Shown here one piece after another: positions 1 through 56,482 of a stretch of 56,482 nt of DNA (position 1 is the first letter of the stretch; every line of letters begins with the position of its first letter). Position numbers and translations under genes: made by a program. Under the pieces are notes generated by a model. The model saw only the letters and a list, made by a program, of their open reading frames with translations, was not told where the DNA came from and did no database searches. The DNA is from a virus (taxonomy: Duplodnaviria; Caudoviricetes), in the IMG/VR virus record IMGVR_UViG_3300033485_000014, positions 1 to 56,482 of that record. The stretch is one strand, 5' to 3'.

Positions 1-127
1 GTATGAGGCGTGGCGGCGGGGGGATGAGCGATGTGAGCGTGGCGATATGTGACGATGCGCGATTGATGCTTGCGTATGAGAACGGAGGGACGTAGAGTGA
101 GGTGGAGAGAGGGAGAGAGATGATGGC
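1..127 (+). repeat. Left inverted terminal repeat, 127 bp
   Basis: Bases 1..127 are the exact reverse complement of 56356..56482; identity stops after ...GAGAGATGATGGC. Confidence 0.97.
70..98 (+). promoter_or_regulatory. sigma70-like promoter in left ITR
   Basis: TTGCGT (70-75), 17-bp spacer, TAGAGT (93-98), then a purine-rich RBS region and ATG at 120. Confidence 0.6.
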
Positions 128-685: not shown

Positions 686-711
686 CGCCCCGAGCCCCGG
701 GGCTCGGGGCG
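686..711. repeat. Perfect 26-bp GC-rich palindrome
   Basis: CGCCCCGAGCCCC|GGGGCTCGGGGCG, intergenic, directly before an AGGAGG RBS. Confidence 0.9.
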
Positions 712-725
712 TTAGGAGGCACGAG

Positions 726-929: not shown

Positions 930-1180
930 TCGTCAGAAACGCAGCCAGTCCTGAGGGTATAGAGCCGCAGTTCTGGTACAGGACTTACGATGCCATCGGG
1001 TGGGAGCCGACGTCCACCGATTGTCGCGAGTTCCCGCCTCGCCTCGCCGCATTCGTAGAGTCGTCAGACGACGGAGTCGACGATCCCGACTCGGGGTGGC
1101 GAGAATGGGAGACTCCCGCGAACGCAGAATTCACGGTCACCCTCCCCGGAGGAGAAACGTCCGTCATTCTGCGGATGTAG
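926..1180 (+). CDS. Hypothetical acidic protein
   Basis: Translationally coupled ORF. Confidence 0.6.
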   Translation: MIVRNAASPEGIEPQFWYRTYDAIGWEPTSTDCREFPPRLAAFVESSDDGVDDPDSGWREWETPANAEFTVTLPGGETSVILRM

Positions 1181-1191
1181 CAGGTCCGCTA

Positions 1192-1392
1192 ATGCCCTAT
1201 CGATTCACTCGTCGCAGGGCGCTCGTAGCCCTACGCGATCGGAGCCACAGACTCCCGGACGATTACGCGCTGACCCGATCGGAGAAGCGAGCTGTCGTGA
1301 GCATCCTAGCCGCCGGGTACGAGTTCGTGCAAATGATGCAGCGGCGATCTGATTGTGCTACGTTGGCGCATCATGACGATGAGAAAGAATGA
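1192..1392 (+). CDS. Hypothetical protein
   Basis: Fills the gap in the operon. Confidence 0.45.
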   Translation: MPYRFTRRRALVALRDRSHRLPDDYALTRSEKRAVVSILAAGYEFVQMMQRRSDCATLAHHDDEKE

Positions 1393-1573
1393 CCGGAAGA
1401 TGAAGAAGAATGCGAAAACGAAACGGTGCGCGATCGTGGCCGACGTGCCCCCGGAGATGCTCGATGTCGTGCGCAAGGCAGCAGTTACTGATGATCGCAC
1501 GGTCGCGAGCTGGGTGCGGCGAGCTATCGCGAGAGAGCTCGAGTCTCACGGAGTGGGCGGCGAGCAGAAATGA
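1379..1573 (+). CDS. Ribbon-helix-helix (Arc/CopG-like) DNA-binding protein
   Basis: AIVADVPPEMLDVVRKAAVTDDRTVASWVRRAIAREL fits the RHH pattern; start uncertain. Confidence 0.65.
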   Translation: MRKNDRKMKKNAKTKRCAIVADVPPEMLDVVRKAAVTDDRTVASWVRRAIARELESHGVGGEQK

Positions 1574-1878
1574 GCCGTCGTCGCTCGTCGGCACCAGAGT
1601 CGGCACCGCTCTTCGCGAAGGCGAATGCGGCCGCTATCGCAACCGAGTCGCTCGTCGAATCCGCGAAGCGATGGGACGCACCGGTGACGAAAGTGGCGAC
1701 ATCGAAGGAGCCAGCATCGAAATATCACTGCTCGAAGTGCGGTTCCGAATTGGAGGCTATTGCTCCCTCGATCGAGCCGCCGTGGCCGTACGAGGGAATC
1801 GAATTGGCATGCCCGAAGTGTGAGGGTCCGCTCGAGTTGGTTGACGTAGTGAGGGGTTGGTACCGGAGGGCATCGTGA
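1570..1878 (+). CDS. Zinc-ribbon protein
   Basis: CSKC...CPKC pair. Confidence 0.55.
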   Translation: MSRRRSSAPESAPLFAKANAAAIATESLVESAKRWDAPVTKVATSKEPASKYHCSKCGSELEAIAPSIEPPWPYEGIELACPKCEGPLELVDVVRGWYRRAS

Positions 1879-2660
1879 GCGTCCTTCTCGTTGACCTCTC
1901 CTCCGTTCTTGTCCCTCACTACCACGCTCACGGCAAGCGCATCGGCGGCAACGACACGTGCGACTCGACCGTGTTCGCGATCAATTCGCTCGCGGCGGAG
2001 TACGGCCACGATGGCGTAGCAATCTGCTGCGATGCGCCGGGAGTGCCCACGTGGCGCAAAGAGCTGTGTCCGTCGTACAAGGCGGACCGGCCCCCATGGG
2101 AGGACCTGCTCATCGATCAATACGTCAAGGCCCGTGGCGCACTGGAGCACGGCGCCGGGTATGCAGTGTTCGTTGTGCCTGGGTTCGAAGGTGAGGACCT
2201 CGTTGCTTCCGTGATAGCAAAGCTGTGGAACTCACCGAATCTGCGATTCGTCGTCGCTTCGTCGGATAAGGATGTGGTGCAAATGATCTGCCCGCGCGTG
2301 ACCGTATGGTCACCCGGGAAGAAACGCTTGCTCGATGCCGCCGCCGCACTCGAGATATACGGTGTTCGTCCGAATCAGATCCGCGACTACCTATGCATGA
2401 CTGGCGATGCGAGCGATGGCATTGCGGGCATCAAGGGTATCGGTGAGGTGACAGCGAAGAAGCTGCTCGCGAAGCACGGTACGCTCGAAGAGATCTTGCG
2501 CGTAGCCGGCGGGCCAGCGGCGGCCGAGCTCGGAATCCCGCAGTCGAAAGTGGCCGCACTGCTCGCCGGTTCGGAGGCTGCTGACATAGCGCATCGACTC
2601 GTGACACTACGCAAGGACGCGCCAGTGGATGTGTCGAAAGTGAGAAGGGTAACGCGATGA
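1875..2660 (+). CDS. 5'-3' exonuclease / flap endonuclease (Pol I N-terminal-like)
   Basis: LLVD, WRKELCPSYKADR, GFEGED, SSDKD, and the H3TH motif GDASDGIAGIKGIGEVTAKKLL. Confidence 0.93.
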   Translation: MSVLLVDLSSVLVPHYHAHGKRIGGNDTCDSTVFAINSLAAEYGHDGVAICCDAPGVPTWRKELCPSYKADRPPWEDLLIDQYVKARGALEHGAGYAVFVVPGFEGEDLVASVIAKLWNSPNLRFVVASSDKDVVQMICPRVTVWSPGKKRLLDAAAALEIYGVRPNQIRDYLCMTGDASDGIAGIKGIGEVTAKKLLAKHGTLEEILRVAGGPAAAELGIPQSKVAALLAGSEAADIAHRLVTLRKDAPVDVSKVRRVTR

Positions 2661-2854
2661 AATTCAGCGGCAAAGTGGTTGGACCCGATCTGGTACAGAT
2701 TGAGCTTCAGTTTGGGCGTCAAAAGATCGTGATGCGACTGGCCGCTGACGAGGTGGCGTTGATGGGTGACTGCTTGATGAAGGTGGCGGAGGCGGCAGCG
2801 AAGGAGGCGGAGGACAACGTCTCGACGAATGCGGTCTTAAGGGTGATGTCGTGA
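2657..2854 (+). CDS. Hypothetical protein
   Basis: Coupled ORF. Confidence 0.55.
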   Translation: MKFSGKVVGPDLVQIELQFGRQKIVMRLAADEVALMGDCLMKVAEAAAKEAEDNVSTNAVLRVMS

Positions 2855-3210
2855 ACACCAAGATTCGCACCCCCTTTGGTGAATGGTCCGTCCCACGCGG
2901 GTTCGGTCGAGAGTACAGGCGTGTAGCGCGAGACCATGCCCACGTTCTCGCCAAGGGCAGCCCGGGAGAAGTCATCCGCCGGATTCAGGACATCCTAAGC
3001 CTGATCGGTTACGCGCCAACCGTTGCCGCTGTTGCGGACTGGGATGCGCGCAAACGAGTAGAGGCGTTCGTGTATGCGTCGAATGTGCACGCCCGAGCGA
3101 GCGACAATTTCATCCCGCGGCATCCACCGCTCTCATGGCTACCAGAGCCGTGGGACGGAGGATACGACAACTTCGGTGCGTTGCCGACTCCTATTGGGGG
3201 TTCCGCGTGA
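2851..3210 (+). CDS. Hypothetical protein
   Basis: Coupled ORF (GTGA overlaps). Confidence 0.6.
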   Translation: MNTKIRTPFGEWSVPRGFGREYRRVARDHAHVLAKGSPGEVIRRIQDILSLIGYAPTVAAVADWDARKRVEAFVYASNVHARASDNFIPRHPPLSWLPEPWDGGYDNFGALPTPIGGSA

Positions 3211-3404
3211 GCACCTCCGTCGGCTACAGCATGACCGATCCGTGTGCGCAATGCGGCGCCTCAGGCCCCGACCGATGGGTCGAGATCCGGCACACAGACA
3301 ACGGCGATGAGATTGGGGAGTGCATGCAATGCCGGGGGCTGACGGGCGAACGCACGGAGGCGCGGGCAGCGCCAAAGCCTGTGCAAGGAAGATTGTTCGA
3401 ATGA
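3207..3404 (+). CDS. Small zinc-ribbon protein
   Basis: CAQC...CMQC; C-terminal QGRLFE resembles a beta-clamp-binding motif. Confidence 0.5.
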   Translation: MSTSVGYSMTDPCAQCGASGPDRWVEIRHTDNGDEIGECMQCRGLTGERTEARAAPKPVQGRLFE

Positions 3405-4840
3405 CCGTCGCCGCCGTCCACCCCTACTCCGTAGGCTATTGCGGAGTCGTGATCGCGTCCGGAGATGCGCCGCCGTTCCAGGTCGTTGCCACCGAATCGC
3501 TGCCGGTGGGTCACCTCACGACCGACGGTCCGATTGCGCGCGGCAAGAATGCTCGTCGCGAATGCAGTGACGGAGAGGCGGCGGCGCTTGCGCAGACCGT
3601 CATGCGGCAATGCGTGAGCGCTGGTGTGACCCGCATCTTCGTTGAGGCTGGCGCATCGGTGGTGGGCGGCTCCGTGTCGCGTTGGGTGCAATCGCTCGCA
3701 GCAAGCAACGGAATCAGATGCGACGTAATGCCAGCCAGTCCCACTGGCCCTCGCCGCCGCCTGAACATGCATGGGCTGTTCATCGGCTGGCCAGCGCAAA
3801 GCTACACGTCGATCGAGGGCGCTGCCGAGCTGCTCGTAGCAGGGATGAGCGGAGAGGTGCCATCGATCGAGGGAGCTCTCGACCTTCCGTCACTCGACGG
3901 AATGAATGCAGATCAGGACGCGGCGGCAACCACTTTCTTTCCGGAGGCTCCTAGCGCTGCGCCTCAAGCACAAGAGGTGCCCGCGGAGCCTCCCACCACC
4001 ATCCAGTTCACAGGCCCGTGCCGCGCGGGAATCGACCCCGGATCGCGATGGGTTGCCATAGCGATCGCGGACGCAACCGGCACCGTCGTTGCGTGGCGCT
4101 CGTTTGAGGTGGGACACGATCGGCCGCTAGTGAAACCGAAGACGATCAAGCGGAAGGATGGGACCACATACCAGCGCGCAGTCGAACATGTCATCACGTC
4201 TGATGACATCGACGATCTCATCGCGAAGATCGATGAGCTACTGCGAGCATTCGGAGTCAATCGAGCGGTTGTTGAATGGATCGAGCACGCTCGAGTCCCG
4301 GTCAACAATCCAGCGGTAGCCATTGCTCGCGCCACCGAGATCGCTCGTGCGCAATGGGTCGGTGGCGAGATCTGCAGATGGTGCAAGGCGCTGGCGCTAG
4401 TCGACACCGTCATCGACGTGGAAACGGTCGTCTACAAGCAATGGGCTGGTCCCATCTCGCGGGCCTCGACGACGAAGGACATTCGAGACAAGATTCGGCC
4501 CGCCGTGCTTCAGGCGTGCCCGCAGATGACAGCAGCTGATGAGCATGAGCTCGACGCCGCCGGTATCGTCCTGTGGGACATGATGCCAGCAAAGACCGAA
4601 CCTGCAGTGACGGAGCGGAGGCACGTCCGCGCGCCAGAAGGAAGCTACGACAGGGCCGCGGCGAAACGGGAATCGATGCGAGCGCTAGCGGAGCGCAACC
4701 GAGCAAGGAAGCTAGCTGACCGAGCGGCGCGGGGATGCTCGTGTGGACTGAATTCGAATCATCGGAAGACGTGCCCACTGTATGTTCCGCGCAAATACAA
4801 GGCGCAGATGGGGCTACCGTTTGGTAGCAATGAGGAGTGA
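3401..4840 (+). CDS. Tandem RuvC/RNase H-fold protein (degenerate N copy, intact C copy) with C-terminal Zn motif
   Basis: C copy: GIDPGS...VVE...HELDAA; N copy aligns (AVHPYS, VGH, RIFVE, VGG..SRW, EGAA); CSCx5HxxxC tail. Confidence 0.75.
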   Translation: MTVAAVHPYSVGYCGVVIASGDAPPFQVVATESLPVGHLTTDGPIARGKNARRECSDGEAAALAQTVMRQCVSAGVTRIFVEAGASVVGGSVSRWVQSLAASNGIRCDVMPASPTGPRRRLNMHGLFIGWPAQSYTSIEGAAELLVAGMSGEVPSIEGALDLPSLDGMNADQDAAATTFFPEAPSAAPQAQEVPAEPPTTIQFTGPCRAGIDPGSRWVAIAIADATGTVVAWRSFEVGHDRPLVKPKTIKRKDGTTYQRAVEHVITSDDIDDLIAKIDELLRAFGVNRAVVEWIEHARVPVNNPAVAIARATEIARAQWVGGEICRWCKALALVDTVIDVETVVYKQWAGPISRASTTKDIRDKIRPAVLQACPQMTAADEHELDAAGIVLWDMMPAKTEPAVTERRHVRAPEGSYDRAAAKRESMRALAERNRARKLADRAARGCSCGLNSNHRKTCPLYVPRKYKAQMGLPFGSNEE

Positions 4841-5343
4841 CGATGTACTGGTATCGCGTAGAACTCAATTCGAGCGGCAACTGTATCACGTGCACGCAAC
4901 TCGAGCAGTGCGGCGCTCCTGAAGATCCGAATATTTTCTACGTGTGGGCGCCCGACGAGCAGCGAGCGAAAAATACGGCCTACGAGGCATACATAGCGAA
5001 TCATCGCAGGCTCTCCAACGAACGGCGTGTCCGCCTGAAGGCTGAGAGGAAGTGCACTCAATGCGGAACGGATATGCCGAAAGGGGACGACAGGGTAAGG
5101 TGCGGCACCTGCCGCGAGCGCGAGTACGATAACAAGCAGCGGATTGCAGACAGGAAAGCCGGCAAGGAAGTGGTTGCACCATCGAAGCGCATCGCATTCG
5201 CTGAAACGAAAGCGCTCCGGGAGCGAAAGCAGCGCGGAGAGGTGCTGATCGAAGTGCGAAAAGCATGGCGCAGAGCGCAGACCGACGAGCAGTTCTCGGC
5301 TTGGCTCGATGCGCGAATCAAGGAATGTGAGGCATCTCAATGA
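4837..5343 (+). CDS. Zinc-finger hypothetical protein
   Basis: CTQC...CGTC with basic helices. Confidence 0.6.
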   Translation: MTMYWYRVELNSSGNCITCTQLEQCGAPEDPNIFYVWAPDEQRAKNTAYEAYIANHRRLSNERRVRLKAERKCTQCGTDMPKGDDRVRCGTCREREYDNKQRIADRKAGKEVVAPSKRIAFAETKALRERKQRGEVLIEVRKAWRRAQTDEQFSAWLDARIKECEASQ

Positions 5344-5681
5344 GCGGACGATGGGGCTATATTGAAATTATGGGACATCGAAGCCACTTCGGTCTCGTGT
5401 CGGAGATTGATCGGTTCGGAACCAAGATGGCTCTCGTGCAGGTGCCTGACGTGAGCAACAATCCGTCGTCGTTCGTCGCTGAATTCGAATACGGCGGCTC
5501 GGCCGTCTTCTCGTTCACTGTGATGACGGAGGAAGCTGTCAAGACCAGGCTTAGGGCAGAGGCCGAAGCAGAGCGCAAGCGCAAGGAACGGGAGGCTGAG
5601 TGGAATAAGCAATTCGAGATTCCGCAGCTGACCGACGGAGATGACGACGAAGACGAAAAGGATCTCTCTGACACATTTTGA
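5340..5681 (+). CDS. Phage hypothetical protein
   Basis: Coupled ORF; EIMGHR...G motif; acidic tail. Confidence 0.65.
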   Translation: MSGRWGYIEIMGHRSHFGLVSEIDRFGTKMALVQVPDVSNNPSSFVAEFEYGGSAVFSFTVMTEEAVKTRLRAEAEAERKRKEREAEWNKQFEIPQLTDGDDDEDEKDLSDTF

Positions 5682-5689
5682 GGAGCATC

Positions 5690-6295
5690 ATGAAAACACC
5701 TGAAGAATGGGCTGGCGATATCGCTGAGGCACGATCTGACTTCCCCTTCGTCACTTTGCGACAGCTGCTCACTGAGCATGTCCGACAGATTCAGAAGGAG
5801 GCTTTCGAGGCTGGAGAGAACAGCGCGCTGAAGGCGTCAACGAGATCTCTCCGGTCTCAGCTGGTCGAGTTTCACGCAGCTTTTGACCACACCGTGAATA
5901 CGGTGCCAACGATCCCTAGCGATGAGGACGTGCGGTTGCGAGCTCGACTGATCATCGAGGAAGCCTTCGAGGCTCTTGAGTCGATGTTCGACGAAGCTGA
6001 CGGTCGAACTGAATTCGATAGACATAAGCGGGAGGTGCTAAAGGAATGCTCGTTTGGCCGAGTCAACGTCGACATGTCTGATCTGGCCGACGCGCTAGGA
6101 GATATCGACTACGTCGTTGAGGGCACTCGTCTCACGTTCGGAATTGACGGCACTCCGATCGCCGTCGAGATCCATCGGTCCAACATGGCCAAGGTGGGCG
6201 GCGTCAAGGACAAGCATGGCAAGCTCCAGAAGCCCGCTGACTGGACACCTCCGGATATCGAGGGCGAACTCCGCAAGCAGGGGTGGAAGGAGTAG
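5690..6295 (+). CDS. MazG-like / PRA-PH family nucleotide pyrophosphohydrolase
   Basis: LIIEEAFE, LADALGDIDYVVEG, EIHRSNMAK, GKLQKP motifs. Confidence 0.88.
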   Translation: MKTPEEWAGDIAEARSDFPFVTLRQLLTEHVRQIQKEAFEAGENSALKASTRSLRSQLVEFHAAFDHTVNTVPTIPSDEDVRLRARLIIEEAFEALESMFDEADGRTEFDRHKREVLKECSFGRVNVDMSDLADALGDIDYVVEGTRLTFGIDGTPIAVEIHRSNMAKVGGVKDKHGKLQKPADWTPPDIEGELRKQGWKE

Positions 6296-6298
6296 CCC

Positions 6299-7621
6299 GT
6301 GTCCGATTCCACCAAGCGAATGATCGACGCTAGGCGCCGGAAGATCGACGCGCCCCCGATTACGCCGTCGACCATCATCGTCAACGCTCAGCCAGCAAAG
6401 CGCGCATCGATACGCAACTTCATGTCGGAAGGACCCACCGAAGATGAGGGCGAAGACCAGTCCGAGCGATGGGGAAACATCCTGCTTCAAGCCCAGGCAT
6501 TTCACTCCAACCCACACATGGGCAACTTGCTGTGGGTTGATTCACGGTGCGTCGCCGCCGGCATGCACCCCATGGATGAAGTCTGGAAGCGACACTTCTG
6601 CGACTTCTACGAAAGCGGCAAGCGAATCGACGCCGGTCGCTTCGGTTTGCGAGCCGCGAAGTCCGACTCGTGCATCAGGGCTACCGTCGCAGAAGTCCTG
6701 ATGACGCAGCGGCAGCTTGAGCCTGGTCAGGCCGGCGTGTGCCCGATCATCTCTGCGAACATGTCCGAGGCGTCTGACCGGTTCGACACGGCCGTCAAGG
6801 TTCTGGCCGCATGCGGCCTCCGTGAGGCCAAGCGCAATCTGAAAGACAAGTTCGGATTCCAGCAAGCGGGCGGCGGCACTCAGGGTCACACGATCTTCAC
6901 GTTCGACTCGCAAGGGCACCCCGTCGAGATGCGGATCTATTCGTGCTCGGTTGCTGGCGTCATTGGCTACACTGGCATCGCCGGCTTCTTCGACGAGCTT
7001 GATAAGTGGGGGAAGGACCTCGGGGCGAACCCGGCCGAGCGAGTGATGGATCTCGCCTTGCAGCGATACACTACGCAACCCACTGCGCGAGTGCACGCAA
7101 TGAGCGCTTCGTACTTCGAGAAGTCGTATCACCGCCGAATGATCGATGAGGGCGACACTCCGTTGCAGCGTGTCGCAAGGCTAGGTCTGCTCGGGGCGCG
7201 CCGCGACGAGGAGTCGCGGAAGCGGCTGTACGAAGAGATCAAAGACGACCCCGCACAGAAGGGCAATCCGGATCTGGAGCTGCTACTCGAGCCCGCGGAC
7301 CCAATGTCTGTTGACATTCCGTGCTGGGTCACGAATCCGGTCGCTCCCATCGAAGAGTGCTACAAGAGCAACAAGGGCCGAATTCGGCAGATGCTGGCAC
7401 TGAGCGGAGGCCGGGCTGCATACAACGTCGGCGTGGCCGGGGTAGTCAATTTCGACGGTCTGGCCGAAGCGAACCTACGCTTGCAGTCGAGCGACCGAGG
7501 TCGCGAGCGCACAATCGACGGCGCAGAGCACCGGTACATGGGCGACGTCGGGAGATGCTACGATGGGCCATCGCATGACCCGAGGTCGTTTTCGCACGGG
7601 AGAGGGAGAGGAGTGTTGTAG
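6299..7621 (+). CDS. Terminase large subunit-like packaging ATPase, apparently lacking the nuclease domain
   Basis: Terminase-type Walker A variant GRFGLRAAKS, ANMSEASDRF, Walker B GFFDE, coupling motif MSAS, PCWVTNP; only a short tail follows. Confidence 0.7.
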   Translation: MSDSTKRMIDARRRKIDAPPITPSTIIVNAQPAKRASIRNFMSEGPTEDEGEDQSERWGNILLQAQAFHSNPHMGNLLWVDSRCVAAGMHPMDEVWKRHFCDFYESGKRIDAGRFGLRAAKSDSCIRATVAEVLMTQRQLEPGQAGVCPIISANMSEASDRFDTAVKVLAACGLREAKRNLKDKFGFQQAGGGTQGHTIFTFDSQGHPVEMRIYSCSVAGVIGYTGIAGFFDELDKWGKDLGANPAERVMDLALQRYTTQPTARVHAMSASYFEKSYHRRMIDEGDTPLQRVARLGLLGARRDEESRKRLYEEIKDDPAQKGNPDLELLLEPADPMSVDIPCWVTNPVAPIEECYKSNKGRIRQMLALSGGRAAYNVGVAGVVNFDGLAEANLRLQSSDRGRERTIDGAEHRYMGDVGRCYDGPSHDPRSFSHGRGRGVL

Positions 7622-7627
7622 CTTCAA

Positions 7628-7837
7628 ATGCTGATTCATCTGCTCAAACTACTTTGGTTGCGCATTCAATACCTCCTGCATCCAAACGCCTTTCACAGAT
7701 GCTCCGTGTGCGGTCAGTCTGACCGACACAGCGACACGTGCCTCGCTTGCACCTGCACCCTGTGCGCTTGGCGGTATGAATGCCCATCGGCGTGGGACAT
7801 GTACAATAGCGACGGTGATTGCTTGGATTTGAAGTAA
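7628..7837 (+). CDS. Small Cys-rich protein
   Basis: CSVC, CLACTCTLC; coupled to the next gene. Confidence 0.5.
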   Translation: MLIHLLKLLWLRIQYLLHPNAFHRCSVCGQSDRHSDTCLACTCTLCAWRYECPSAWDMYNSDGDCLDLK

Positions 7838-8271
7838 TGCGCAAACTCAAAACCCTTCCCCCAATGCACTGCGATCCGGGCTGCGGAGACTGTTGCGGCC
7901 CGGCGCCGTGCACGGAATCTGAGTATCAGCAGATCGTTCGTTACATCGATCGCAACGGCATCATCCCAATCAACGGCGGGCTCACGTGTCCGCTGCACAT
8001 CAATGGTCAATGTGCTGTCTACGACGTGCGCCCGCTCACGTGCAGATTGTTCGGCCACACCGAGCGGATGCCATGTCCGCGAGGGCACTCGGTCTTCGTC
8101 GACGAGCGCCAGATCGAGCGGATGTGGCGAGCGCACGGGAAAGCGACGAGGTTGCCACACGAGCTCATTCCGGGATTGATCGAGTGCCTGCCAGAGCTAT
8201 TCGAGCGCGAGCGCGAGGCTATCACGCCATCGTTCCGCGAGCTGCTCGCGAATAGAGGGGTCAATGTGTGA
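7837..8271 (+). CDS. YkgJ-family (CxxCxxCC) Fe-S/Zn cysteine-cluster protein
   Basis: CDPGCGDCCG, CPL, CAVYDVRPLTCRLFG. Confidence 0.85.
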   Translation: MRKLKTLPPMHCDPGCGDCCGPAPCTESEYQQIVRYIDRNGIIPINGGLTCPLHINGQCAVYDVRPLTCRLFGHTERMPCPRGHSVFVDERQIERMWRAHGKATRLPHELIPGLIECLPELFEREREAITPSFRELLANRGVNV

Positions 8272-8355
8272 CGCAACGAATTGGATCTCGATGTAGGTGC
8301 AGTAGTGAAAGCTCGCACGAAAGTTGATTCGATGTCTCGCGCTCGCTGGAGTTAT

Positions 8356-8371
8356 TACGTCGAATGACGTA
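8356..8371. promoter_or_regulatory. Inverted repeat (possible operator) next to a TATAGT -10-like element
   Basis: TACGTC-GAAT-GACGTA in an AT-rich intergenic stretch. Confidence 0.35.
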
Positions 8372-8390
8372 TAGTATAGATGAGGCAACG

Positions 8391-8546
8391 ATGACAACGA
8401 AACGCAACAATCTGGTAGCGCTGAAAAGGTCCACGCTTGCGATGGTGGGTGCCAACGCGAATCTGCGCTTGCATCTGTCCGACAGCAAGCATCTCTCCGC
8501 CGAAGCTCTCAACCGTCTCGCTCGAGACGTTATGAGGCCGCTGTGA
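8391..8546 (+). CDS. Hypothetical protein
   Basis: GAGG RBS; first gene of a small-gene string. Confidence 0.45.
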   Translation: MTTKRNNLVALKRSTLAMVGANANLRLHLSDSKHLSAEALNRLARDVMRPL

Positions 8547-8830
8547 GACGAATCGTGGGTTACGGGCCAGCGGTCAGCGAAGCGGAGCGGCAACTGGGCC
8601 CGTCGGGCTCATGTGTGCACAAGGCGACCCACATCGGCGTGCCACTGCCGCAACGATTGCCGCAGGTCGAACTCGTCACCGTCCTATACATGGGCGGCAA
8701 GTACCAGCTGTCGCACATCAAGATCGATGGCCGCGTCACCGGCTCCGTCAATACCAGTGGGTGGACTGGGGAGCGTGTGGACCGACTCGAGCGGATGGTC
8801 AAGCGCATCTACGCAACGGGGGCGCTCTGA
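8543..8830 (+). CDS. Hypothetical protein
   Basis: Coupled ORF. Confidence 0.55.
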   Translation: MRRIVGYGPAVSEAERQLGPSGSCVHKATHIGVPLPQRLPQVELVTVLYMGGKYQLSHIKIDGRVTGSVNTSGWTGERVDRLERMVKRIYATGAL

Positions 8831-9003
8831 TGACCCTGAACGAAATGACCGCGCTGGCGATCTGTGAGGTCCGGGCCAACCTTGTGGCTCGGTATCTGGC
8901 GGCAAAGGACATCATCGCCGCGCAGCGAGAGCGGATCAGCCTGCTGGAGTCGCTGCTGGAGAAAGCGGCCGTGGAGGTGGAGGTAGACCATGAAGTTCGT
9001 TGA
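8830..9003 (+). CDS. Short coiled-coil protein
   Basis: TGATG overlap with the previous gene. Confidence 0.5.
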   Translation: MTLNEMTALAICEVRANLVARYLAAKDIIAAQRERISLLESLLEKAAVEVEVDHEVR

Positions 9004-9367
9004 AGCGTTGACAGCTATGTGTGCGGATTCTCGCCGTCGGTTCTGGTGCCGCGTTCAAGGTGAAGTGTATTCAGGCGGAACCAAAACGCGCGACATTAGC
9101 GTCTTGTGCAGCGTCGTAGGATCCGCGCTGGTAGCTCATTCGGACCCATCTAGCCGCGACCATTACACCTCCTACCTGTCGGTCACCGACGCTCTCCGAG
9201 GGGACTGGGAGGAGTTCGTGGAGACGCACGGCTTCGAGTGGGCGAGGGAGCAGCTCAAAGCGGGACGACTAGTCGCCCGGCGGGCGACCGCAAACGTAAA
9301 GGCCTACGACGCCGCATCTCGCCTATCGCTAGAGGATATTGACGCTACCGATTGGATGCTGGCGTAA
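8990..9367 (+). CDS. Hypothetical protein (DUF2829-like ends)
   Basis: GGAGG RBS; MKFVEAL start and DIDATDW end. Confidence 0.6.
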   Translation: MKFVEALTAMCADSRRRFWCRVQGEVYSGGTKTRDISVLCSVVGSALVAHSDPSSRDHYTSYLSVTDALRGDWEEFVETHGFEWAREQLKAGRLVARRATANVKAYDAASRLSLEDIDATDWMLA

Positions 9368-9380
9368 GGACGGGACGGTC

Positions 9381-9623
9381 ATGATTCGAGGATACTGCAA
9401 AACCAACCTGGATGAATACAAGCACGAGGACTGGCCGACGGCGTTCGTGTCTCTGCCGCGAAAAGGGGATTGGGTGCAAGCCAAAAGCGGTAAGGTCCTT
9501 TGCGTGTGCCAGGTGACGCACTGCCAAGCATACTCGTCAGACACTATGCCCAGATTCGACAGGCGCCCCATCCAAGTAGGGGATCCGTTCATTATCGTGG
9601 AACTAACGGGATGGGGCCAATGA
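9381..9623 (+). CDS. Hypothetical protein
   Basis: ORF within the operon. Confidence 0.55.
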   Translation: MIRGYCKTNLDEYKHEDWPTAFVSLPRKGDWVQAKSGKVLCVCQVTHCQAYSSDTMPRFDRRPIQVGDPFIIVELTGWGQ

Positions 9624-9834
9624 TCGCTCACCACCATCCCGACGGCCAGGTCCTATCCTGCCCGTGCGGCGCGAGGCTGTTCGATCCGAAGCCTTATGCC
9701 CCTGATGTCACCGACGGATTCGTGCCGCGCGAGCGGACACAGAGATGCATGACGGGGGCTGCCGCACAAGCGGGTAAGCCGAATCGGATTCGGTCAGCCC
9801 CTCCAAACCAACAGCAACAGAAACGAGGTACCAG

Positions 9835-10365
9835 ATGCAATTATCAATAGTGCCGTACTACGCGGCGATGGCTACATGCGCATTCCTCCTGCTCGTATCA
9901 TTCACGGGTGTCGCGTGGTGCATTGCGCAGATCTGGCGCCGCACTCGCCTCACCCCCCAACAATGGGAGAAGCGCATGTCGGAGATCGCGATGCGCAGCA
10001 GCAGGGTTCAGTTCGACGTGAGTATGCTGCGATCGGGCCTGGTCCGAGGCCCGTACGAGCGTCCGTATCAGGCCTGGAAAAGATGGCAGTATGTCATCGA
10101 TAGACGAAGCGAACTCCGCTTCGCTGCCGCCCGCATCTTCTGCAAGCTGACCGGATGGTCTGCAAACACTGGAGTACGCATCGTTGTGGACAGGTTCTGG
10201 ACAGTACACATCTACTCTCCGTTCGTGCTATTACACATCAGGGAATGGGAGAAGGTCATATCTGCCGCGCTGGACGGGGCGCACGTTCGCATTCATAACC
10301 AGCCTGCCCTCCTGCCGGTGTGTTCTGAAGACGACTGCGATCGACGGGTATCCTATTCCCTATGA
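9835..10365 (+). CDS. Membrane-anchored hypothetical protein
   Basis: GAGG RBS; N-terminal hydrophobic helix. Confidence 0.6.
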   Translation: MQLSIVPYYAAMATCAFLLLVSFTGVAWCIAQIWRRTRLTPQQWEKRMSEIAMRSSRVQFDVSMLRSGLVRGPYERPYQAWKRWQYVIDRRSELRFAAARIFCKLTGWSANTGVRIVVDRFWTVHIYSPFVLLHIREWEKVISAALDGAHVRIHNQPALLPVCSEDDCDRRVSYSL

Positions 10366-10395
10366 TCGGCTCATTGTTTGAGAGGAGACAGCAAA

Positions 10396-10710
10396 ATGAG
10401 ACATCCCGACATGATCGACGAAGTTGCCATCGAGACGGGCCGGCCCAGGGGTAGCGTCCTGGGCCCTGTGCTCGGAATCACAGATGATGCCGCGTGTGTC
10501 CGAGAACAGCCGAAGGAGTCGGTCTCGACCACGAAGGTCACTATCATCGAGCATGTCCGCCAAGAACGCAACGCTTACGGAGACACGCTCGTGAGTACCG
10601 TCGATGCTCACAACATCTACACGAGAACGCTCGATCTGTTTCCGGATGTTGGGAACCAAGTAGGAACCTTCGAGATCACTGCCACTTTCACGCCGGAGCC
10701 ACCGAAATGA
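10396..10710 (+). CDS. Hypothetical protein
   Basis: GAGGAG RBS. Confidence 0.55.
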   Translation: MRHPDMIDEVAIETGRPRGSVLGPVLGITDDAACVREQPKESVSTTKVTIIEHVRQERNAYGDTLVSTVDAHNIYTRTLDLFPDVGNQVGTFEITATFTPEPPK

Positions 10711-10931
10711 GAATCACGAACCGAGGCCACAAGCCGACTCCACACAATCGTGGCACACCAGTCCCGATGCCTCCGAAGGCGGAGAGCATCGCAAAGTACG
10801 AGCGACTGTGCGGCGTCATGCCGTACAAGATCGAACTGGACGGAGTTCTGCTTGGCAGAGCTCGAACCGAACGAGCTGCGCTCGTCGCCGTGTTTGCGAT
10901 GGGACTTCCTAGGGAGTGTGTCATTCAGTGA
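10707..10931 (+). CDS. Hypothetical protein
   Basis: ATGA-coupled ORF. Confidence 0.5.
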   Translation: MRITNRGHKPTPHNRGTPVPMPPKAESIAKYERLCGVMPYKIELDGVLLGRARTERAALVAVFAMGLPRECVIQ

Positions 10932-10976
10932 CGCTGCTGGAGATTGATTGACGCAATAACCGCATCATGAGGAACC

Positions 10977-11318
10977 ATGAATCTCGCAATGGCAACCATT
11001 GTCGCGTCGTTGACACTGTCGCAGGCTGATCTGTCCGTCATGAATTCAGCGATCGAAACCACGTGTCCGCCGCTCAAGGAAGAGGCTGTCGTCATCCGGA
11101 TGATCCAGCTGGAGCGATCGAACCCAGCTGGAGTCATCGACCTTCGCAGGCTTCATGAGCTTGGAGAGGATCTGGTCGCAGTTCGTTCAGAACTGAGCGA
11201 AGCTCGGCACGCGCAAGCGAAGGGGCTTGCGCTATTCCGGCGATGGTCGGGAAAGCAGCTGGACGCCGGATTCTGCTTTGCTTGGGGTAATCGTGAGCAG
11301 GCGTCCGGAGACGATTGA
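10977..11318 (+). CDS. Hypothetical protein, possibly exported
   Basis: GAGGA RBS; signal-peptide-like N-terminus. Confidence 0.55.
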   Translation: MNLAMATIVASLTLSQADLSVMNSAIETTCPPLKEEAVVIRMIQLERSNPAGVIDLRRLHELGEDLVAVRSELSEARHAQAKGLALFRRWSGKQLDAGFCFAWGNREQASGDD

Positions 11319-11507
11319 GCGATTCCGGCACATCGTTCGACGCATGTGGCGAGAGGCGTCGAAGCGATACCGGGCCGCGCATCCTCAGCGGGTTCACGCG
11401 GCCGCAAAGCGGTATCGTGCAGCGAATCCGGAAAAGGAACGGGCTAGAAAGAGGCGGAGGCGTGATGCCTCTTGACCCCACCGTAATTCCGTCGGACACT
11501 GTCCGGC

Positions 11508-14500
11508 ATGGCGAATGCTGCATCGGACGATAGGCAGGCGAAACTTCTCGGACTCATGGCGGACGGAGTGTCTCTTCGTGCCGCTGCTGCTGCCGTAGGG
11601 ATTCCGAAGTCGACTGCTTCGGACATGGTCCGCTCATCTCGCAGCGGACCGTCCGGAATAGCATCCAATCAGGGCACACCGGGAGTCCCGTTCTCCGGAG
11701 CAATCGAGCCGCCCGCATCTGTTCCGCCGCTGGACTGGAACAACGATCAGACTGCTCCACCACCCGATCCCCTCGTGTTCCGAGAGGGATACCACGATCG
11801 GTCGTTCCGTCAGTACATGGCCCCGCTCGCGTTCGATGGGTGGGACCTTGACCGGGTACGCAACGCCATTTCGATGCACTGTCAGGGCATCTTCCTCGAG
11901 AGCTCGCAGCTGGCAATCGCGGTCTCACGATTCGGCCCGGTGACTGCCGCACTCAAGCAGCGTGTGGCGCCAGCCCTCGGGCGCCCTCGACAGGTGCACG
12001 CTGGAACCAGGGGCCTATCCAAGGTGCTAGGCCGCGAGATAGAGCGACAGCTGGCCCCTCGTCTTGGACTGCGTCCGTCTCCCTACTTCCCTCCGATTCT
12101 TTGGGGCTCGATCGGAATCGATCTGGCGATGATGGGATTCTCCGTGCTTCAGCATGCGTACGGAGCACCCAATCCGGACACCGGAATTCGCATGGTCTAC
12201 ACGCGCCGATGGCCGACGTGGGCAGTGCAGTATTGGCGCCCTCGTCGTACGTTCATTGCAATGACGACGGAGGGGCCAGTTGACATCATCTCCGGCGATG
12301 GCAAATTCACGCTCGTCGCCGATAGTGAAGAGCCGCATCTCGAGGCCGCTATCATCCCCCTCGGAGAAGAGGCACTCGACGGGAAGTCCACCCAACGGGC
12401 GCGCGCGTCGTATGTAGACAAGTACGGCAATCCGAAGTGGGTTGGCATCATGCCTCAGGGGGTTGCGGTCCGCTCCAAGGAAGGCGATGCGTTCTTCGAT
12501 GCGCTGGCCACGATTCGTGGCCCCGACGGGTACGGAGCGATTCCTTTCGGTTCCCAGCTGGACATCAGGGGGCTGACGAGCGGCCAGTCGGACACGTTCA
12601 AGGATGCGCTTGAGTCCAACTGGCAATACGTGGCGGCCATCCTGCTCGGCTCCGATGGGACAATGACCCGAGGTACCGGAGTCTACAGCGCACCGATCTT
12701 CGCTGGAGTGAGACGCGATCTCGTCGAGAGGGACCTCAAGGCAGAGATTCGAGCAGTGAACTGCGGGCACGTAGCTCCGTGGCTCGCGTTCAACTACGCA
12801 TCCTCGATCGCTGAGGCAAGAGGGTGGATAGATCCTGTGTTCGATATTCCCTTGCCTGATCCAGATGCGGACGCACGCATCGAATCAATCGGCAAGAGGA
12901 CGAAGATGTTCATTGAGATCCAGAAGGCGAAGGCTGATGCTGGATTCGAGGTCTCCCAGGACAGCGTTGACGAAGATGCTGCGACGTTCGAGATTGAAGC
13001 ACCGAAGCTTGCCGTGTCGGAGAATAAGAGAGTTCCCATCGACGTTCCGCCCACCGAGAGAGCGAAGGTCGTCAAGGTCAGGGAGCTGCGCAGCAACATG
13101 GGTCTGGAGCCGCTCGGGACCGATCGGGACGATGCGCTTTTGGCTGATCTGGACAAGACGCAACCGGAGGGTGAACAAGGCTCTGAAGCGTCGGGTGACG
13201 AACCGGTGGCAACGGAGGCCACGGAAGGCGAGCAGGAATCGTCAAGCGAGGCCACGGATCATGGGGGCACATCAACCGGCGGCAAGCAAGGTAAAGCGCT
13301 AGCTGGTGAGTTTCAGTGGATGGTCACATTCGCCCGCGATGATTGGCAGGCGGATATCATCGACGCGATCACCGATCGAACCAAGATGACGTGCCCGCAT
13401 TGCGCTGGAGTGATTCGGGACGAGTCCGACGTGATGCGTGGGTGGTATTGCATCCACTGCGGAGGCAAGTGGGAAGAATCGAAGCATCCGCGAAAGGGCG
13501 GAAAGTTCGCGAAGAAAGGTGAAGGGGACGGGGGCGCGAAGAGGGAAGCGGAACCGAAGAGGCCGGCAGCGAAGAAAACTGATGCGCAAAAGAAGAAGGA
13601 AGCGGCGAAGAAAGCCAAAGAGAAGGAGCGCGAAAAGGCCAAGCGAGCGAAGGCCAAAGAGGCAGAGAAGAAGCGCAAGGCCAAAGAGAAGACGGAGGCA
13701 GCGAAGCGGAAGACGGCGAAGAAGCCTGCCAAGAATGCGTCCGCCAAGAAGGCTCCGAAGAAGGCAGCTGCCAAGAAGCCGGCGAAGCGGAAGACGGCGA
13801 AGAAGCCTGCCAAGAATGCGGCGCCGAAAAGAAAGGCAGCGAAGAAGCCAACTGCAAAGCCGTCCGATAAGAAGCCCGGGACCGCGGAGCCGAAGAAGAA
13901 GTCACCCACGCCTGAGCCTGAGCCTGAGAAGAAACCCGAAAAGAAGAAGCTTGATCCGGACAAGTACAAGGACATTCAGGACGATCCTAAGCCAGAAAAG
14001 AAGCCAGCTAAGAGCGGTACGCACCCTCACGATCCGGAGCATTGGGAAGAGCACTACAAGCATCTAGGATATGCAGCGAAGCATGCCGCCTACGGACATG
14101 CCATGAATGAGCGCGGACTGGACATGCCGCCCAAGGAAGCCGCCGATCATCTTCGTGGAATGGCCAAGCGCAACAAGATGTTTGAGGAAGCTGTGTGGTA
14201 TCTGGAGGATCTGCACTCTAGGGGATACAAGTCTATCAGAGAACTGAAGAAAACAGATCCTGAAGCCGGCGCAGCCCTGTCGGCCATTACCGCCCTCGCG
14301 GCACACAGCAAAGAGTTGAAAGCATCCGGCGGGACCATGTCAGCCAAAGGTCAGCTCACCGTCAACAAGGAGACGATGGGCAATGAACTGGCAATGGGCA
14401 TGGTCAAGTCGGCCAGGGACTTCTATCAGACATTCGCCGCATCAGGTAGAACCTTCGGAAAGGTCAGCATTCAACTGGAGCCAGGAAGAGCTAGAGCTGC

Positions 14501-14897
14501 ATACTACCCGAGCAAGAACAAGGTTGCCTACAACGCATCGCCCGGAAGCAACCCCGCTGTGATTGAGCACGAGCTGGGGCACTGTCTGGCCGGAAACAAC
14601 AAGGACATTTCAGACGCAGCGTCTGAATTCTTTCACGCCAGAACGAAGGGTGAGACGCTTCAACCAATAAAAACCAAGAAGAAGGCCGACGAGTTCTACG
14701 GAAAGGAAGAGGTCTGTCTCCCCGACAAGTTCATGAGCAGATACATGGGTCGTGTGTACTCAGACGAAAGTAAGCCAGAAGGAACAGAGATCGTGTCAAT
14801 GGCGTGCGAGTATCTAGCCAGGGAACCTCACACGTTGTTCACCAAAGATCCGGAGATGTTCCACTTCATTCTTGGGGCACTCAAAGGAGTCAAGTGA
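11508..14897 (+). CDS. Portal protein fused to an N-terminal HTH and C-terminal Zn-ribbon, K/A-rich and HExxH metallopeptidase regions
   Basis: HTH (GVSLRAAAAAVGIPKSTASDMVR); Mu gp29/DUF935-like portal motifs (GFSV, YVDKYGNP, AAILLG, ELRSNMGLEP); WEESKHPRKGGKF; VIEHELGH...EIVSM...DPEMFHFILG. Confidence 0.8.
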   Translation: MANAASDDRQAKLLGLMADGVSLRAAAAAVGIPKSTASDMVRSSRSGPSGIASNQGTPGVPFSGAIEPPASVPPLDWNNDQTAPPPDPLVFREGYHDRSFRQYMAPLAFDGWDLDRVRNAISMHCQGIFLESSQLAIAVSRFGPVTAALKQRVAPALGRPRQVHAGTRGLSKVLGREIERQLAPRLGLRPSPYFPPILWGSIGIDLAMMGFSVLQHAYGAPNPDTGIRMVYTRRWPTWAVQYWRPRRTFIAMTTEGPVDIISGDGKFTLVADSEEPHLEAAIIPLGEEALDGKSTQRARASYVDKYGNPKWVGIMPQGVAVRSKEGDAFFDALATIRGPDGYGAIPFGSQLDIRGLTSGQSDTFKDALESNWQYVAAILLGSDGTMTRGTGVYSAPIFAGVRRDLVERDLKAEIRAVNCGHVAPWLAFNYASSIAEARGWIDPVFDIPLPDPDADARIESIGKRTKMFIEIQKAKADAGFEVSQDSVDEDAATFEIEAPKLAVSENKRVPIDVPPTERAKVVKVRELRSNMGLEPLGTDRDDALLADLDKTQPEGEQGSEASGDEPVATEATEGEQESSSEATDHGGTSTGGKQGKALAGEFQWMVTFARDDWQADIIDAITDRTKMTCPHCAGVIRDESDVMRGWYCIHCGGKWEESKHPRKGGKFAKKGEGDGGAKREAEPKRPAAKKTDAQKKKEAAKKAKEKEREKAKRAKAKEAEKKRKAKEKTEAAKRKTAKKPAKNASAKKAPKKAAAKKPAKRKTAKKPAKNAAPKRKAAKKPTAKPSDKKPGTAEPKKKSPTPEPEPEKKPEKKKLDPDKYKDIQDDPKPEKKPAKSGTHPHDPEHWEEHYKHLGYAAKHAAYGHAMNERGLDMPPKEAADHLRGMAKRNKMFEEAVWYLEDLHSRGYKSIRELKKTDPEAGAALSAITALAAHSKELKASGGTMSAKGQLTVNKETMGNELAMGMVKSARDFYQTFAASGRTFGKVSIQLEPGRARAAYYPSKNKVAYNASPGSNPAVIEHELGHCLAGNNKDISDAASEFFHARTKGETLQPIKTKKKADEFYGKEEVCLPDKFMSRYMGRVYSDESKPEGTEIVSMACEYLAREPHTLFTKDPEMFHFILGALKGVK
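13701..13820 (+). repeat. 39-bp direct repeat in the K/A-rich linker
   Basis: GCGAAGCGGAAGACGGCGAAGAAGCCTGCCAAGAATGCG at 13701-13739 and 13782-13820. Confidence 0.9.
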
Positions 14898-49253: not shown

Positions 49254-49456
49254 TTCGAAACAGAGAAACGAACATTACCGTGGATGAAGCCACTAGAAGA
49301 GCAAAATCGGATGTTGACGCTTTTCGCGGTCCTCTATTCCGACGAACTTACTTCGGAATTGTGCCGATGCGGTCATACCCTACTGCAGACCATCCTAGCG
49401 CAGAGAATTGGTCCGATGCTGCTCGTAGGGCATATGTTGACGAATATTCTAGGTGA
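49250..49456 (+). CDS. Hypothetical protein
   Basis: ATGA-coupled ORF. Confidence 0.45.
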   Translation: MIRNRETNITVDEATRRAKSDVDAFRGPLFRRTYFGIVPMRSYPTADHPSAENWSDAARRAYVDEYSR

Positions 49457-49463
49457 TGACGAC

Positions 49464-49904
49464 ATGGTCGAGTTCAATCCGCCCCTGTGGCCGCCTCCGC
49501 CACCCCCGTCGGACACTCTCGAGATCCCGTTCATGGTCAGCCTAGAGCTTGCTCTTGGTGCAAGGCGTGACATTACCATATGGCGTCAGAACGCGGGTGG
49601 CGTGGTCAAGCGCACCAAGTCGGGCAAGCCGATCGGCCGATTCGATGCGGGTCCCCACAAGGGCATCGCTGACATCTGCGGGATTGCTGACGGAGGCGTG
49701 TTTTTGGCCATTGAAACCAAGTCGGCCAGGGGAGTACAGTCTGACGCTCAGGCGGTATTTCAGCAGGTGGTCCAGAGTCACGGTGGCATCTACGTCAGGC
49801 CGATCTACGACGAGACTCTCTCGATGGCCGACAATGTGGCCGCCGCCGTGAAGAAGATCGAGCAGGCTATCGCTGACTGGAGAAATTCATGTTCCAAGCG
49901 TTGA
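49464..49904 (+). CDS. VRR-NUC domain nuclease
   Basis: GIADI...FLAIETK...G.QSDAQ..F. Confidence 0.88.
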   Translation: MVEFNPPLWPPPPPPSDTLEIPFMVSLELALGARRDITIWRQNAGGVVKRTKSGKPIGRFDAGPHKGIADICGIADGGVFLAIETKSARGVQSDAQAVFQQVVQSHGGIYVRPIYDETLSMADNVAAAVKKIEQAIADWRNSCSKR

Positions 49905-55967: not shown

Positions 55968-56363
55968 CTACAGCCACGCGACCTCATTGTTGGCTACATA
56001 GGTGAATCGCCCGACTACCGCATCAGCAACAAGAGCCTCAAACACCCACTTTCCCGCGTTCTGCGTACCCGTGTTGCGCGCTCGGACCTCGACAACGTCT
56101 CCACCTGGAGCAATCACATTGCCAGTCCAGCAATTCGCGCGTCGGAGCTCGGCTACCGTGCGAACAACGGGCGCCCCACGGACCTTGGTAACGGTGAACC
56201 GCTTGGCGGCGCAGCCTTCGCCCCAAATCTGGCCGTTACTCATGTGCGCCAAACGGCGGATGTTGCGACCGCAGTGAGCGCACTGCGCATCAGGCTCATC
56301 CTTGTGATGCTCGTCATTTAGCGTTGAGCGGCCGATAACTCGTAGCGTCTCGCGCGCCATCAT
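55968..56363 (-). CDS. Early Zn-binding hypothetical protein (start codon inside ITR)
   Basis: CAHCGR...GEGCAAK; ATG mirrors position 120. Confidence 0.65.
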   Translation of the reverse strand: MMARETLRVIGRSTLNDEHHKDEPDAQCAHCGRNIRRLAHMSNGQIWGEGCAAKRFTVTKVRGAPVVRTVAELRRANCWTGNVIAPGGDVVEVRARNTGTQNAGKWVFEALVADAVVGRFTYVANNEVAWL

Positions 56364-56482
56364 CTCTCTCCCTCTCTCCACCTCACTCTACGTCCCTCCG
56401 TTCTCATACGCAAGCATCAATCGCGCATCGTCACATATCGCCACGCTCACATCGCTCATCCCCCCGCCGCCACGCCTCATAC
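56356..56482 (-). repeat. Right inverted terminal repeat, 127 bp
   Basis: Reverse complement matches 1..127 base for base. Confidence 0.97.
56385..56413 (-). promoter_or_regulatory. sigma70-like promoter in right ITR (mirror copy)
   Basis: Identical copy of 70..98 on the minus strand, upstream of the ATG at 56363. Confidence 0.6.

Follow-up and report, generated by a model that had tools for sequence, protein, structure and literature searches.

The window analyzed here is the whole of IMG/VR record IMGVR_UViG_3300033485_000014, 56,482 bases of a virus of the class Caudoviricetes that IMG/VR classes as having inverted terminal repeats. At positions 6299..7621 (+) it encodes a 440-residue protein, P0001, which by its predicted structure is a DNA-packaging ATPase of the large terminase subunit (TerL) family, that is, a terminase-type motor without the DNA-cutting part. 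No terminase nuclease domain was found, either within this open reading frame (ORF) or anywhere else in the six frames of the 56.5 kb record. We infer that the motor only translocates DNA and that the genome ends are made by something else. We propose a mechanism, to which we give a probability of about one half, in which preformed, repeat-bounded, unit-length molecules are packaged and a single-chain tandem RuvC-like endonuclease encoded upstream of the motor is the likely maturation enzyme.

The gene for P0001 starts with GTG, four bases past the stop of a gene for a MazG-like pyrophosphohydrolase, and its product comprises a disordered N-terminus (residues ~1-50), an ATPase core with a lid (70-378) and a short conserved tail (379-440). 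A sequence-only reading of this DNA had named four terminase ATPase motifs in the ORF, all of which are found where it placed them. Walker A, or P-loop, is GLRAAKS at residues 116-122 (G116, R118, K121, S122; 6644..6664, +), of which G116, R118, and K121 show no variation in the alignment of 58 homologous sequences. The residue before the lysine is Ala in 46 of the 58 homologues and Gly in the other 12 (GLRAAKS in 29, GVRAAKS in 10, GLRGGKS in 9, GLRGAKS in 6, and other forms in 4), and the replacement of Gly by Ala is thus real and tolerated within the family. Walker B is GFFDE at residues 229-233 (D232, E233; 6983..6997, +), and D232, E233, D235, and W237 are constant across the alignment. 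MSAS, residues 268-271 (7100..7111, +), with S269 and A270 unchanged in all 58 sequences, lies at the position of the terminase coupling motif (motif III). The fourth, PCWVTNP (residues 341-347; 7319..7339, +), has a constant W343 and nearly constant P341, V344, and P347; since it falls within the stretch of the model that aligns to terminase ATPase domains, it is predicted to sit inside the helical lid region of the ATPase domain and not at a domain boundary. As the key residues of the four motifs are invariant or nearly so in 58 homologues, the alignment argues that none of them is a chance resemblance.

The same reading had counted fewer than 100 residues after the NP motif, too few for a nuclease domain, and this also holds: 93 residues follow the motif, and the part of the model that aligns to terminases (70-376) corresponds to an ATPase domain alone. 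Specifically, the tail (residues 379-440; 7433..7618, +) is modeled at low confidence with one helix (384-397) and carries a conserved terminal D-P-R-S segment. The short C-terminus is a property of the family. A word-indexed search of 5.8 billion proteins returned 58 homologues at 37-66% identity, none with a Pfam domain, those with a source name being called 'hypothetical protein', and many being carried by contigs 56.6-59.8 kb long. Whether 20 or all 58 sequences are aligned, the proteins stop at a common point and have a conserved C-terminal segment, with an in-frame C-terminal motif up to the stop common to P0001 and its nearest relatives. The tail past the W-x-x-N-P motif measures 51-101 residues (median 87) in 57 of the 58 homologues, the remaining one having been missed by the regular expression used for the count. 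The sequence-only reading had also considered a frameshift near the end of the gene. Among Logan contigs compared with positions 1-8000 of the window, one from run X1, possibly the source sample, covers 98-8000 with zero differences. X3 and X4, two more samples from the same study, yielded contigs that agree with the window at every position, over 6264-7351 and 7381-7818 (X3) and over 6344-6765 and 6972-7496 (X4). A further X1 contig, short and of low depth, represents a diverged version of the tail. Because contigs of other samples match exactly, the ORF is not cut short by a sequencing error and contains no frameshift.

The identity of P0001 as a packaging motor rests on its fold. The AlphaFold2 (AF2) model, built on the 58-sequence alignment, has a mean predicted local distance difference test (pLDDT) score of 85.9, with values above 90 over most of residues 50-370 and between 48 and 69 per 10-residue block from residue 371 on. 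In comparisons made with VIA-align the best match is the isolated ATPase domain of P74-26 TerL (Z 20.9, root-mean-square deviation (rmsd) 2.7, 224 residues aligned; model 70-376 on chain 2-255), and ranks 1-21 are all large terminases at Z 14.7-20.9, the best non-terminase reaching Z 13.7 and DEAD-box helicases standing lower at Z ~12. In other terminases, too, the ATPase domain alone is aligned, as seen for the D6E terminase (model 87-377 on chain 9-234), T4 gp17 (43-377 on 82-360), and Sf6 gp2 (92-378 on 4-211). Foldseek places large terminases (D6E, P74-26, HK97, T4 gp17) at the top among PDB structures and terminases at the top among the predicted viral structures of BFVD. No FtsK/HerA-type chain is among the best 50 rows of the fold list, an absence that does not by itself exclude an FtsK/HerA fold. 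On this model P0001 is a genuine terminase-type ATPase motor with a lid, and its whole folded part is predicted to be ATPase core plus lid with no RNase H-like domain after it; because the fold ends at ~378 and leaves 62 residues at pLDDT 48-69, there is no room for a nuclease domain.

The sequence link from P0001 to bona fide terminases is transitive only, through relatives that match a terminase family. P0001 itself has no family match in Pfam, PHROGs, or NCBIfam, a profile of 20 homologues gave chance matches only against PDB sequences, and the relative P0130 gave nothing relevant against the same sequences. A profile of the 58 sequences run against 1.84 billion cluster representatives recovers 749 proteins at E≤1e-3, 190 of them at E≤1e-30, with the more distant relatives (about 490-520 residues) matched through the ATPase core only. 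Of ten relatives scanned, six (P0130, P0148, P0150, P0097, P0101, P0105) match phrog_2, 'terminase large subunit', with P0130 at 2.6e-21 over residues 17-446, while the other four (P0069, P0072, P0073, P0081) have no PHROG match; Pfam gives one sub-threshold TerL_ATPase match among the ten.

The loss of the nuclease can be followed across this wider family. In a set of 195 family proteins, the part that extends past the profile match is shorter than 120 residues in 120 proteins and reaches 150 or more in 73 others; we refer to these as short and long. The core is covered by 181 of the 195 proteins, and a quick maximum-likelihood tree of the ATPase region was built from 125 of these as rows, namely all 100 at E<1e-55 and the best 25 of the other 81, the remaining 56 being left out. 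P0001 lies within a clade of 52 rows from many assemblies, all of them short, that is, ATPase-only (Shimodaira-Hasegawa-like approximate likelihood ratio test (SH-aLRT) support 98). This clade is nested in one of 92 rows (support 99) in which 84 are short and 8 long, and the remaining 33 rows of the tree are 17 long and 16 short. The long/short label changes at least 9 times on the tree, 7 of these changes being forced by the starred branches. The tree is unrooted, and gain is told apart from loss only by the view that the nuclease domain is ancestral, as is established in terminases. These comparisons show the ATPase-only architecture throughout much of a large uncharacterized family.

The long tails themselves differ between the two parts of the tree. 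In a C-terminal alignment, the Asp residues of the first and second nuclease motifs are kept in all 19 long relatives of the out-group, which are full-length terminases, and the acidic residue of the third motif in 18 of the 19. All eight in-group long tails (~200 residues) have Ala, Arg, or Ser at the first nuclease Asp, in segments such as G-V-A-P, and the second Asp is not aligned. Compared with the active nuclease domains, the in-group tails give a match over 125 colinear columns (hhalign E 0.0033, probability 9.6%). We consider these eight tails to be probably a vestigial nuclease, like that of phi29 gp16.

A nuclease domain encoded apart from the motor was sought in the window and in related loci. 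When the tails of 73 longer relatives were compared by tblastn with the window in all six frames, the matches were scattered and none was convincing (best E 0.005), and hidden Markov models (HMMs) of the 19 active and 8 dead tails found nothing at E≤1 in the same frames; the dead-tail HMM did recover the long-tail ATPase of the related loci L011/L017. Scans with Pfam (72 ORFs) and PHROG (30 ORFs) revealed no second terminase, no HNH protein, and no terminase nuclease family, and no separate nuclease-domain ORF was seen in ~150 kb of related loci. The record does encode other nucleases, namely a FEN-type 5'-3' exonuclease (1857-2660), a PD-(D/E)XK protein (41946-42896, -), and a second candidate structure-specific nuclease with a PD-(D/E)xK-like D...ExK motif (49284..49904, +), which matches phrog_5702 'Holliday junction resolvase' at E 2.2e-5 and phrog_93 'endonuclease' at E 6.5e-4 and has no Pfam match.

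The first candidate structure-specific nuclease is the tandem RuvC protein (506 residues; 3320..4840, +), whose gene lies 1.5 kb upstream of the ATPase ORF. Its AF2 model, made from five sequences only (pLDDT 70.1), has two RNase H-like domains, and the second of these is followed by a Cys/His motif at the C-terminus of the protein. The C domain (residues 232-426) aligns in VIA-align with P. aeruginosa RuvC (6lw3_A, Z 18.8, rmsd 2.3, 150 of 153 residues, over 232-423), and also with RuvC of T. thermophilus (Z 17.5), a lactococcal phage RuvC (14.3), and the canarypox resolvase (13.5); a structure search of the ESM Atlas independently names RuvC for residues 231-427. Its D239, E319, H409, and D412, the equivalents of the RuvC tetrad, are unchanged in the five sequences. 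The N domain (about 25-181) has Ala or Ile in place of the first catalytic Asp and has lost the His...Asp motif, and it matches RuvC regions of Cas12 up to Z 13.5 (Cas12k), terminase nuclease domains at Z about 10-11 (top 11.1), and YqgF. The two domains match each other with an hhalign probability of 98.7% (E 2e-16) and so are paralogues, the N domain being a duplicate of the C domain, and the protein combines one intact and one dead domain. It holds two paralogous domains in one chain, unlike the RuvC homodimer with its two active sites.

We considered whether the N domain could be a detached terminase nuclease and rejected this: it is a duplicate of the C domain, its hhalign match to terminase tails is not significant, and in structure it resembles TerL nuclease domains (Z 10-11) no more closely than it does Cas12 RuvC or YqgF. 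Homologues of the tandem RuvC gene lie upstream of the ATPase on the same strand in loci L003, L005, and L008, a RuvC-like gene lies upstream of the ATPase but on the opposite strand in L009/L010, and L017 showed no RuvC homologue in the 10 kb on either side of its long-tail ATPase. In genome G001 the homologue is on contig C288, whose end overlaps the start of contig C158 by 19 bases. A predicted complex of the ATPase and the tandem RuvC protein scored 0.08, which neither supports nor opposes an interaction. A subgroup of the relatives has a gene for a HerA/FtsK-like ATPase immediately behind the tandem RuvC gene (Pfam DUF87, E 1.7e-8 to 6.6e-8; L003:4614-6482, L008:3870-5756, G001:C288:9083-10141), and no homologue of the L003/L008 protein is found in the window.

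The record ends in an inverted repeat, with a left arm at 1..127 (61 G and 14 C, thus G-rich and C-poor) and a right arm at 56356..56482. The arms are 100% complementary over 127 nt, and the identity ends sharply at 127. Contigs of X3 and X4 continue from the repeat into right-arm sequence and, because of this, the inverted repeat is real DNA, not confined to one sample. At its inner end (96-127; 56356-56387) each arm carries a purine-rich, Shine-Dalgarno-like tract with a ATGATGGC start, and inward-reading ORFs begin in the arms at 120-365 (+) and 55968-56381 (-), their first residues, M-M-A, being encoded by the repeat. No sigma-70-like promoter was found in positions 1-400, and a 40-nt piece of the repeat found no relatives in IMG/VR.

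Based on these data, we propose the following. The substrate of the motor would be a linear, unit-length molecule bounded by the inverted repeat and produced before, or independently of, the motor. The tandem RuvC endonuclease would be the best candidate end-maker, acting on replication or recombination junctions. The repeat may be recognized by a helix-turn-helix (HTH) element, which is carried by the portal in this phage and by the N-terminus of the ATPase in most relatives. The repeat at both ends, the HTH-bearing portal, and the tandem RuvC protein, on all of which the sequence-only reading had drawn in suggesting cut-free, unit-length packaging, do exist. That suggestion itself fares unevenly: the nuclease-less TerL-type ATPase on which it was built is confirmed by the model, the hallmarks of phi29 were sought and not found in the Pfam and Rfam scans described below, and 'cut-free packaging' is, in our view, plausible.

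Several observations weigh against our proposal. A junction resolvase would not be expected to have a single intact active site, as the tandem RuvC protein does. For the eight long tails, homology to nuclease domains depends on a weak profile match. The replication genes (for a primase-helicase-like protein, SNF2-like and ResIII helicases, a PD-(D/E)XK exonuclease, and an AAA_24 protein) fit a phage that makes concatemers, and concatemers need cutting. Neither a family B polymerase nor a terminal protein was found by Pfam in 72 ORFs, a scan in which weak terminal-protein models could miss the latter; no DNA polymerase was recognized, and the sole replication enzyme of family B polymerase size is the primase-helicase-like protein. 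As for a packaging RNA (pRNA), no Rfam family reaches its gathering score in the window, where a divergent RNA would be missed. Finally, a repeat of exactly 127 nt suggests an assembly-graph boundary, since this length equals the largest k-mer of the usual metaSPAdes run at the Joint Genome Institute (JGI) and since the X1 contig stops 30 bases inside the repeat; the physical ends would then be unmapped. This suggests that the record is a unique segment plus k-mer overlaps. The repeat probably extends past the record, or else the genome may be circular, with two internal inverted repeats and a small segment between them that the record lacks. Nor is the end position evidently conserved, because the L003 contig extends at least 8.4 kb upstream of its RuvC gene, compared to 3.3 kb in the window.

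The strongest alternative, which we regard as a serious contender though less probable than our proposal, is a split terminase: the motor, itself only an ATPase, would be partnered by a distinct nuclease subunit responsible for cutting concatemers both when packaging starts and when it ends, whether by a headful or a site-specific mechanism. The packaging logic would then be conventional, with the cutting moved to another polypeptide, either the tandem RuvC protein (3320-4840) or the PD-(D/E)xK-like protein (49284-49904). The tandem RuvC gene precedes the ATPase gene on the same strand in the window, L003, L005, and L008, and this conserved position, the catalytic residues retained in the C domain of its product, and the concatemers suggested by the replication genes would all be accommodated, as would the at least 7 long/short changes on the tree, which are expected for a function that is easily supplied in trans. 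However, that gene arrangement does not hold in L009/L010, with the RuvC-like gene on the opposite strand, or near the L017 ATPase, where none lies within 10 kb; and the N domain of the tandem protein duplicates its own C domain (E 2e-16) and is not derived from a terminase nuclease. RuvC-type resolvases are, moreover, common in phages with complete terminases, and the vestigial tails of eight relatives point to a motor complex whose cutting was no longer needed, not to one whose cutting was transferred elsewhere.

It is unlikely, in our estimate, that the record is incomplete in a way that matters, that is, that the genome is slightly larger than the contig, which holds only its unique part, and that a nuclease, small terminase, or second terminase is encoded in the collapsed repeat or in a segment between two internal inverted repeats. 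The exact 127-nt repeat would fit a boundary of the de Bruijn graph, as would the X1 contig that stops 30 nt within the repeat, and the homologue-bearing contigs of 56.6-59.8 kb are slightly longer than the record. The missing sequence could, however, amount to a few kb at most, the head, tail, lysis, and replication modules are all present in the record, and no separate nuclease-domain ORF was found in ~150 kb of related loci. Because 52 rows of the tree from many assemblies share the ATPase-only form, this architecture is independent of the present record. That the ORF encodes some other ASCE (additional strand, conserved glutamate) or helicase-like ATPase, or is a decaying gene, for which the lack of a direct Pfam, PHROG, or NCBIfam match and the DEAD-box helicases at Z ~12 could be cited, is very improbable given the terminases at ranks 1-21 (Z 14.7-20.9 versus at most 13.7 for the rest), the canonical place of the gene before the portal in all syntenic loci, its strong conservation in 58 homologues, and a record in which no other terminase candidate was found.

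The neighborhood of the ATPase gene is that of a contractile-tailed phage, in which the ATPase is followed by portal, S49 protease fusion, capsid, and contractile-tail genes. The order ATPase, portal, S49 protease, capsid is kept in C158, L003, L004, and L008, and the portal follows the ATPase in the window and in C158, L003, L004, L005, and L008. The portal (1129 residues; 11508..14897, +) begins with an HTH (HTH_23 at E 2.7e-4, which falls short of the Pfam cutoff) and closes with a domain resembling minor head proteins, where residues 989-1123 match phrog_33618 and phrog_19443 (minor head protein); the two are joined by a linker of Lys/Ala/Pro-rich repeats (13548-13877). A profile built from four homologues matches the PDB portal 9khx_X at E 8e-6. 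The tblastn match to the portal spans the first ~595 residues in C158, L003, and L004 and the first ~509 in L008. The HTH-like N-terminal extension of the ATPase that occurs in most relatives is absent from P0001 and its nearest relative, and as a separate ORF of the window it has a weak match only (ORF 173-652, E 0.24). The replication genes include, in addition to those named above, one for a methylase.

Other features of the window and of its relatives were noted in passing. Directly after the ATPase gene are two Cys-rich ORFs (7628-7837 and 7819-8271), the second with the Pfam CxxCxxCC putative Zn/Fe-chelating domain (E 3.6e-5). The N-terminal half of the protein encoded at 53867-54910 (-) consists of ~20 copies of the 9-residue Arg-rich unit R-L-R-P-R-R-Q-R-T, encoded by a 27-bp tandem repeat array (54343-55044), and its C-terminal part resembles the C-terminal domain of ribosomal protein L7/L12 (Pfam Ribosomal_L12, E 8.3e-20, a match assigned to this ORF by reading the sequence). 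The cumulative GC skew shows an almost monotonic climb across the window, left to right, the + strand carries nearly all of the large ORFs, and no tRNA or Rfam family was detected. In L005 the protease and scaffold genes (2-2126) lie upstream of the RuvC-ATPase-portal block (6080-14908) on the opposite strand, and L017 has, with respect to the ATPase, an inversion of the helicase, methylase, and FEN genes; therefore, large inversions distinguish members of the group.

The family was also sought in phage and host genome collections. P0001 had no tblastn match in 50,697 phage records, IMG/VR scans with the ATPase and portal alignments gave zero relatives, and in the sample of the phylum of G001 a homologue was found in one of 401 genomes, namely G001 itself, and in none of the other 400. 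Because these scans found no relatives beyond G001, the ATPase family is not a common prophage among the genomes searched. G001 is a metagenome-assembled genome (MAG) of the Polyangiaceae in which a ~53 kb relative (L002) is split over contigs C158 and C288; this is the sole hint of a host and, as it depends on binning, weak evidence for one.

The essence of our finding is a large terminase family in which the pump is retained and the cutter lost; at E≤1e-3 it numbers 749 cluster representatives, of which many are ATPase-only. Apart from those of phi29-like phages, the genomes of tailed phages and of herpesviruses are taught to be packaged by a terminase that both cuts and pumps. ATPase-only terminases are here seen to occur in phages with ordinary-sized genomes and contractile tails, and apparent dead-nuclease intermediates make the loss of nuclease activity by a terminase directly testable. 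The finding points to an undescribed way of making phage genome ends. Annotation pipelines miss the ATPase-only genes, and inference of packaging strategy from TerL phylogeny would misclassify the phages that carry them. As a tentative evolutionary scenario, and one that we hold to be rather doubtful as a whole, a widespread, unannotated lineage of ~57 kb phages with contractile tails may have given up cutting by the terminase, with the nuclease first inactivated (and still vestigial in some members) and then deleted several times, the tandem RuvC protein maturing unit-length linear genomes bounded by inverted repeats, much as in poxviruses and rudiviruses, and a TerL-derived motor, guided to the ends by an HTH on the motor or the portal, loading these genomes.

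To our knowledge, a nuclease-less terminase architecture has a counterpart only in phi29-like phages, and a full-text literature search of limited coverage found no description of a family of nuclease-less or split terminases or of terminases with inverted terminal repeats. The canonical TerL proteins (P74-26, D6E, HK97, T4 gp17, Sf6 gp2) share with P0001 the ATPase fold and lid (Z 16-21), Walker A, Walker B, and the third motif, and a gene that likewise lies just upstream of the portal. They differ from it in having a C-terminal RNase H-like nuclease where P0001 has only a ~60-residue tail, and in lacking the extra N-terminal HTH-like segment that most relatives of P0001 carry, and the models of canonical TerL in Pfam, PHROG, and NCBIfam fail to recognize P0001.

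The genome of phi29 is linear with inverted terminal repeats. Its packaging ATPase, gp16, is of the terminase type and does not cut DNA, and its C-terminal domain is reported to be a vestigial nuclease (PMC7672431), which resembles the Asp-less tails of the eight in-group relatives. P0001, by comparison, is without any folded C-terminal domain, even a vestigial one, it has no detectable sequence relationship to gp16 (the profile search of PDB sequences gave no packaging ATPase), and its genome is about three times larger, with contractile-tail genes and with no pRNA, family B polymerase, or terminal protein found.

In the maturation of poxviruses and rudiviruses, a resolvase of the RuvC/Hjc type cuts the inverted-repeat junctions of concatemers, and an ATPase without a nuclease packages the DNA. 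The likeness of the present system to these is an analogy only, hairpin ends and palindromic junctions not being observed here, and the motor is of the TerL type, not the FtsK/HerA type, and serves a tailed-phage capsid and tail. The relatives L003, L008, and G001, with a HerA/FtsK-like ATPase beside the RuvC gene, recall the poxvirus and rudivirus arrangement. As in those viruses, the record combines an inverted repeat at its ends, a RuvC-family endonuclease, to whose C domain the canarypox resolvase itself aligns (Z 13.5), and a packaging ATPase that is predicted not to cut.

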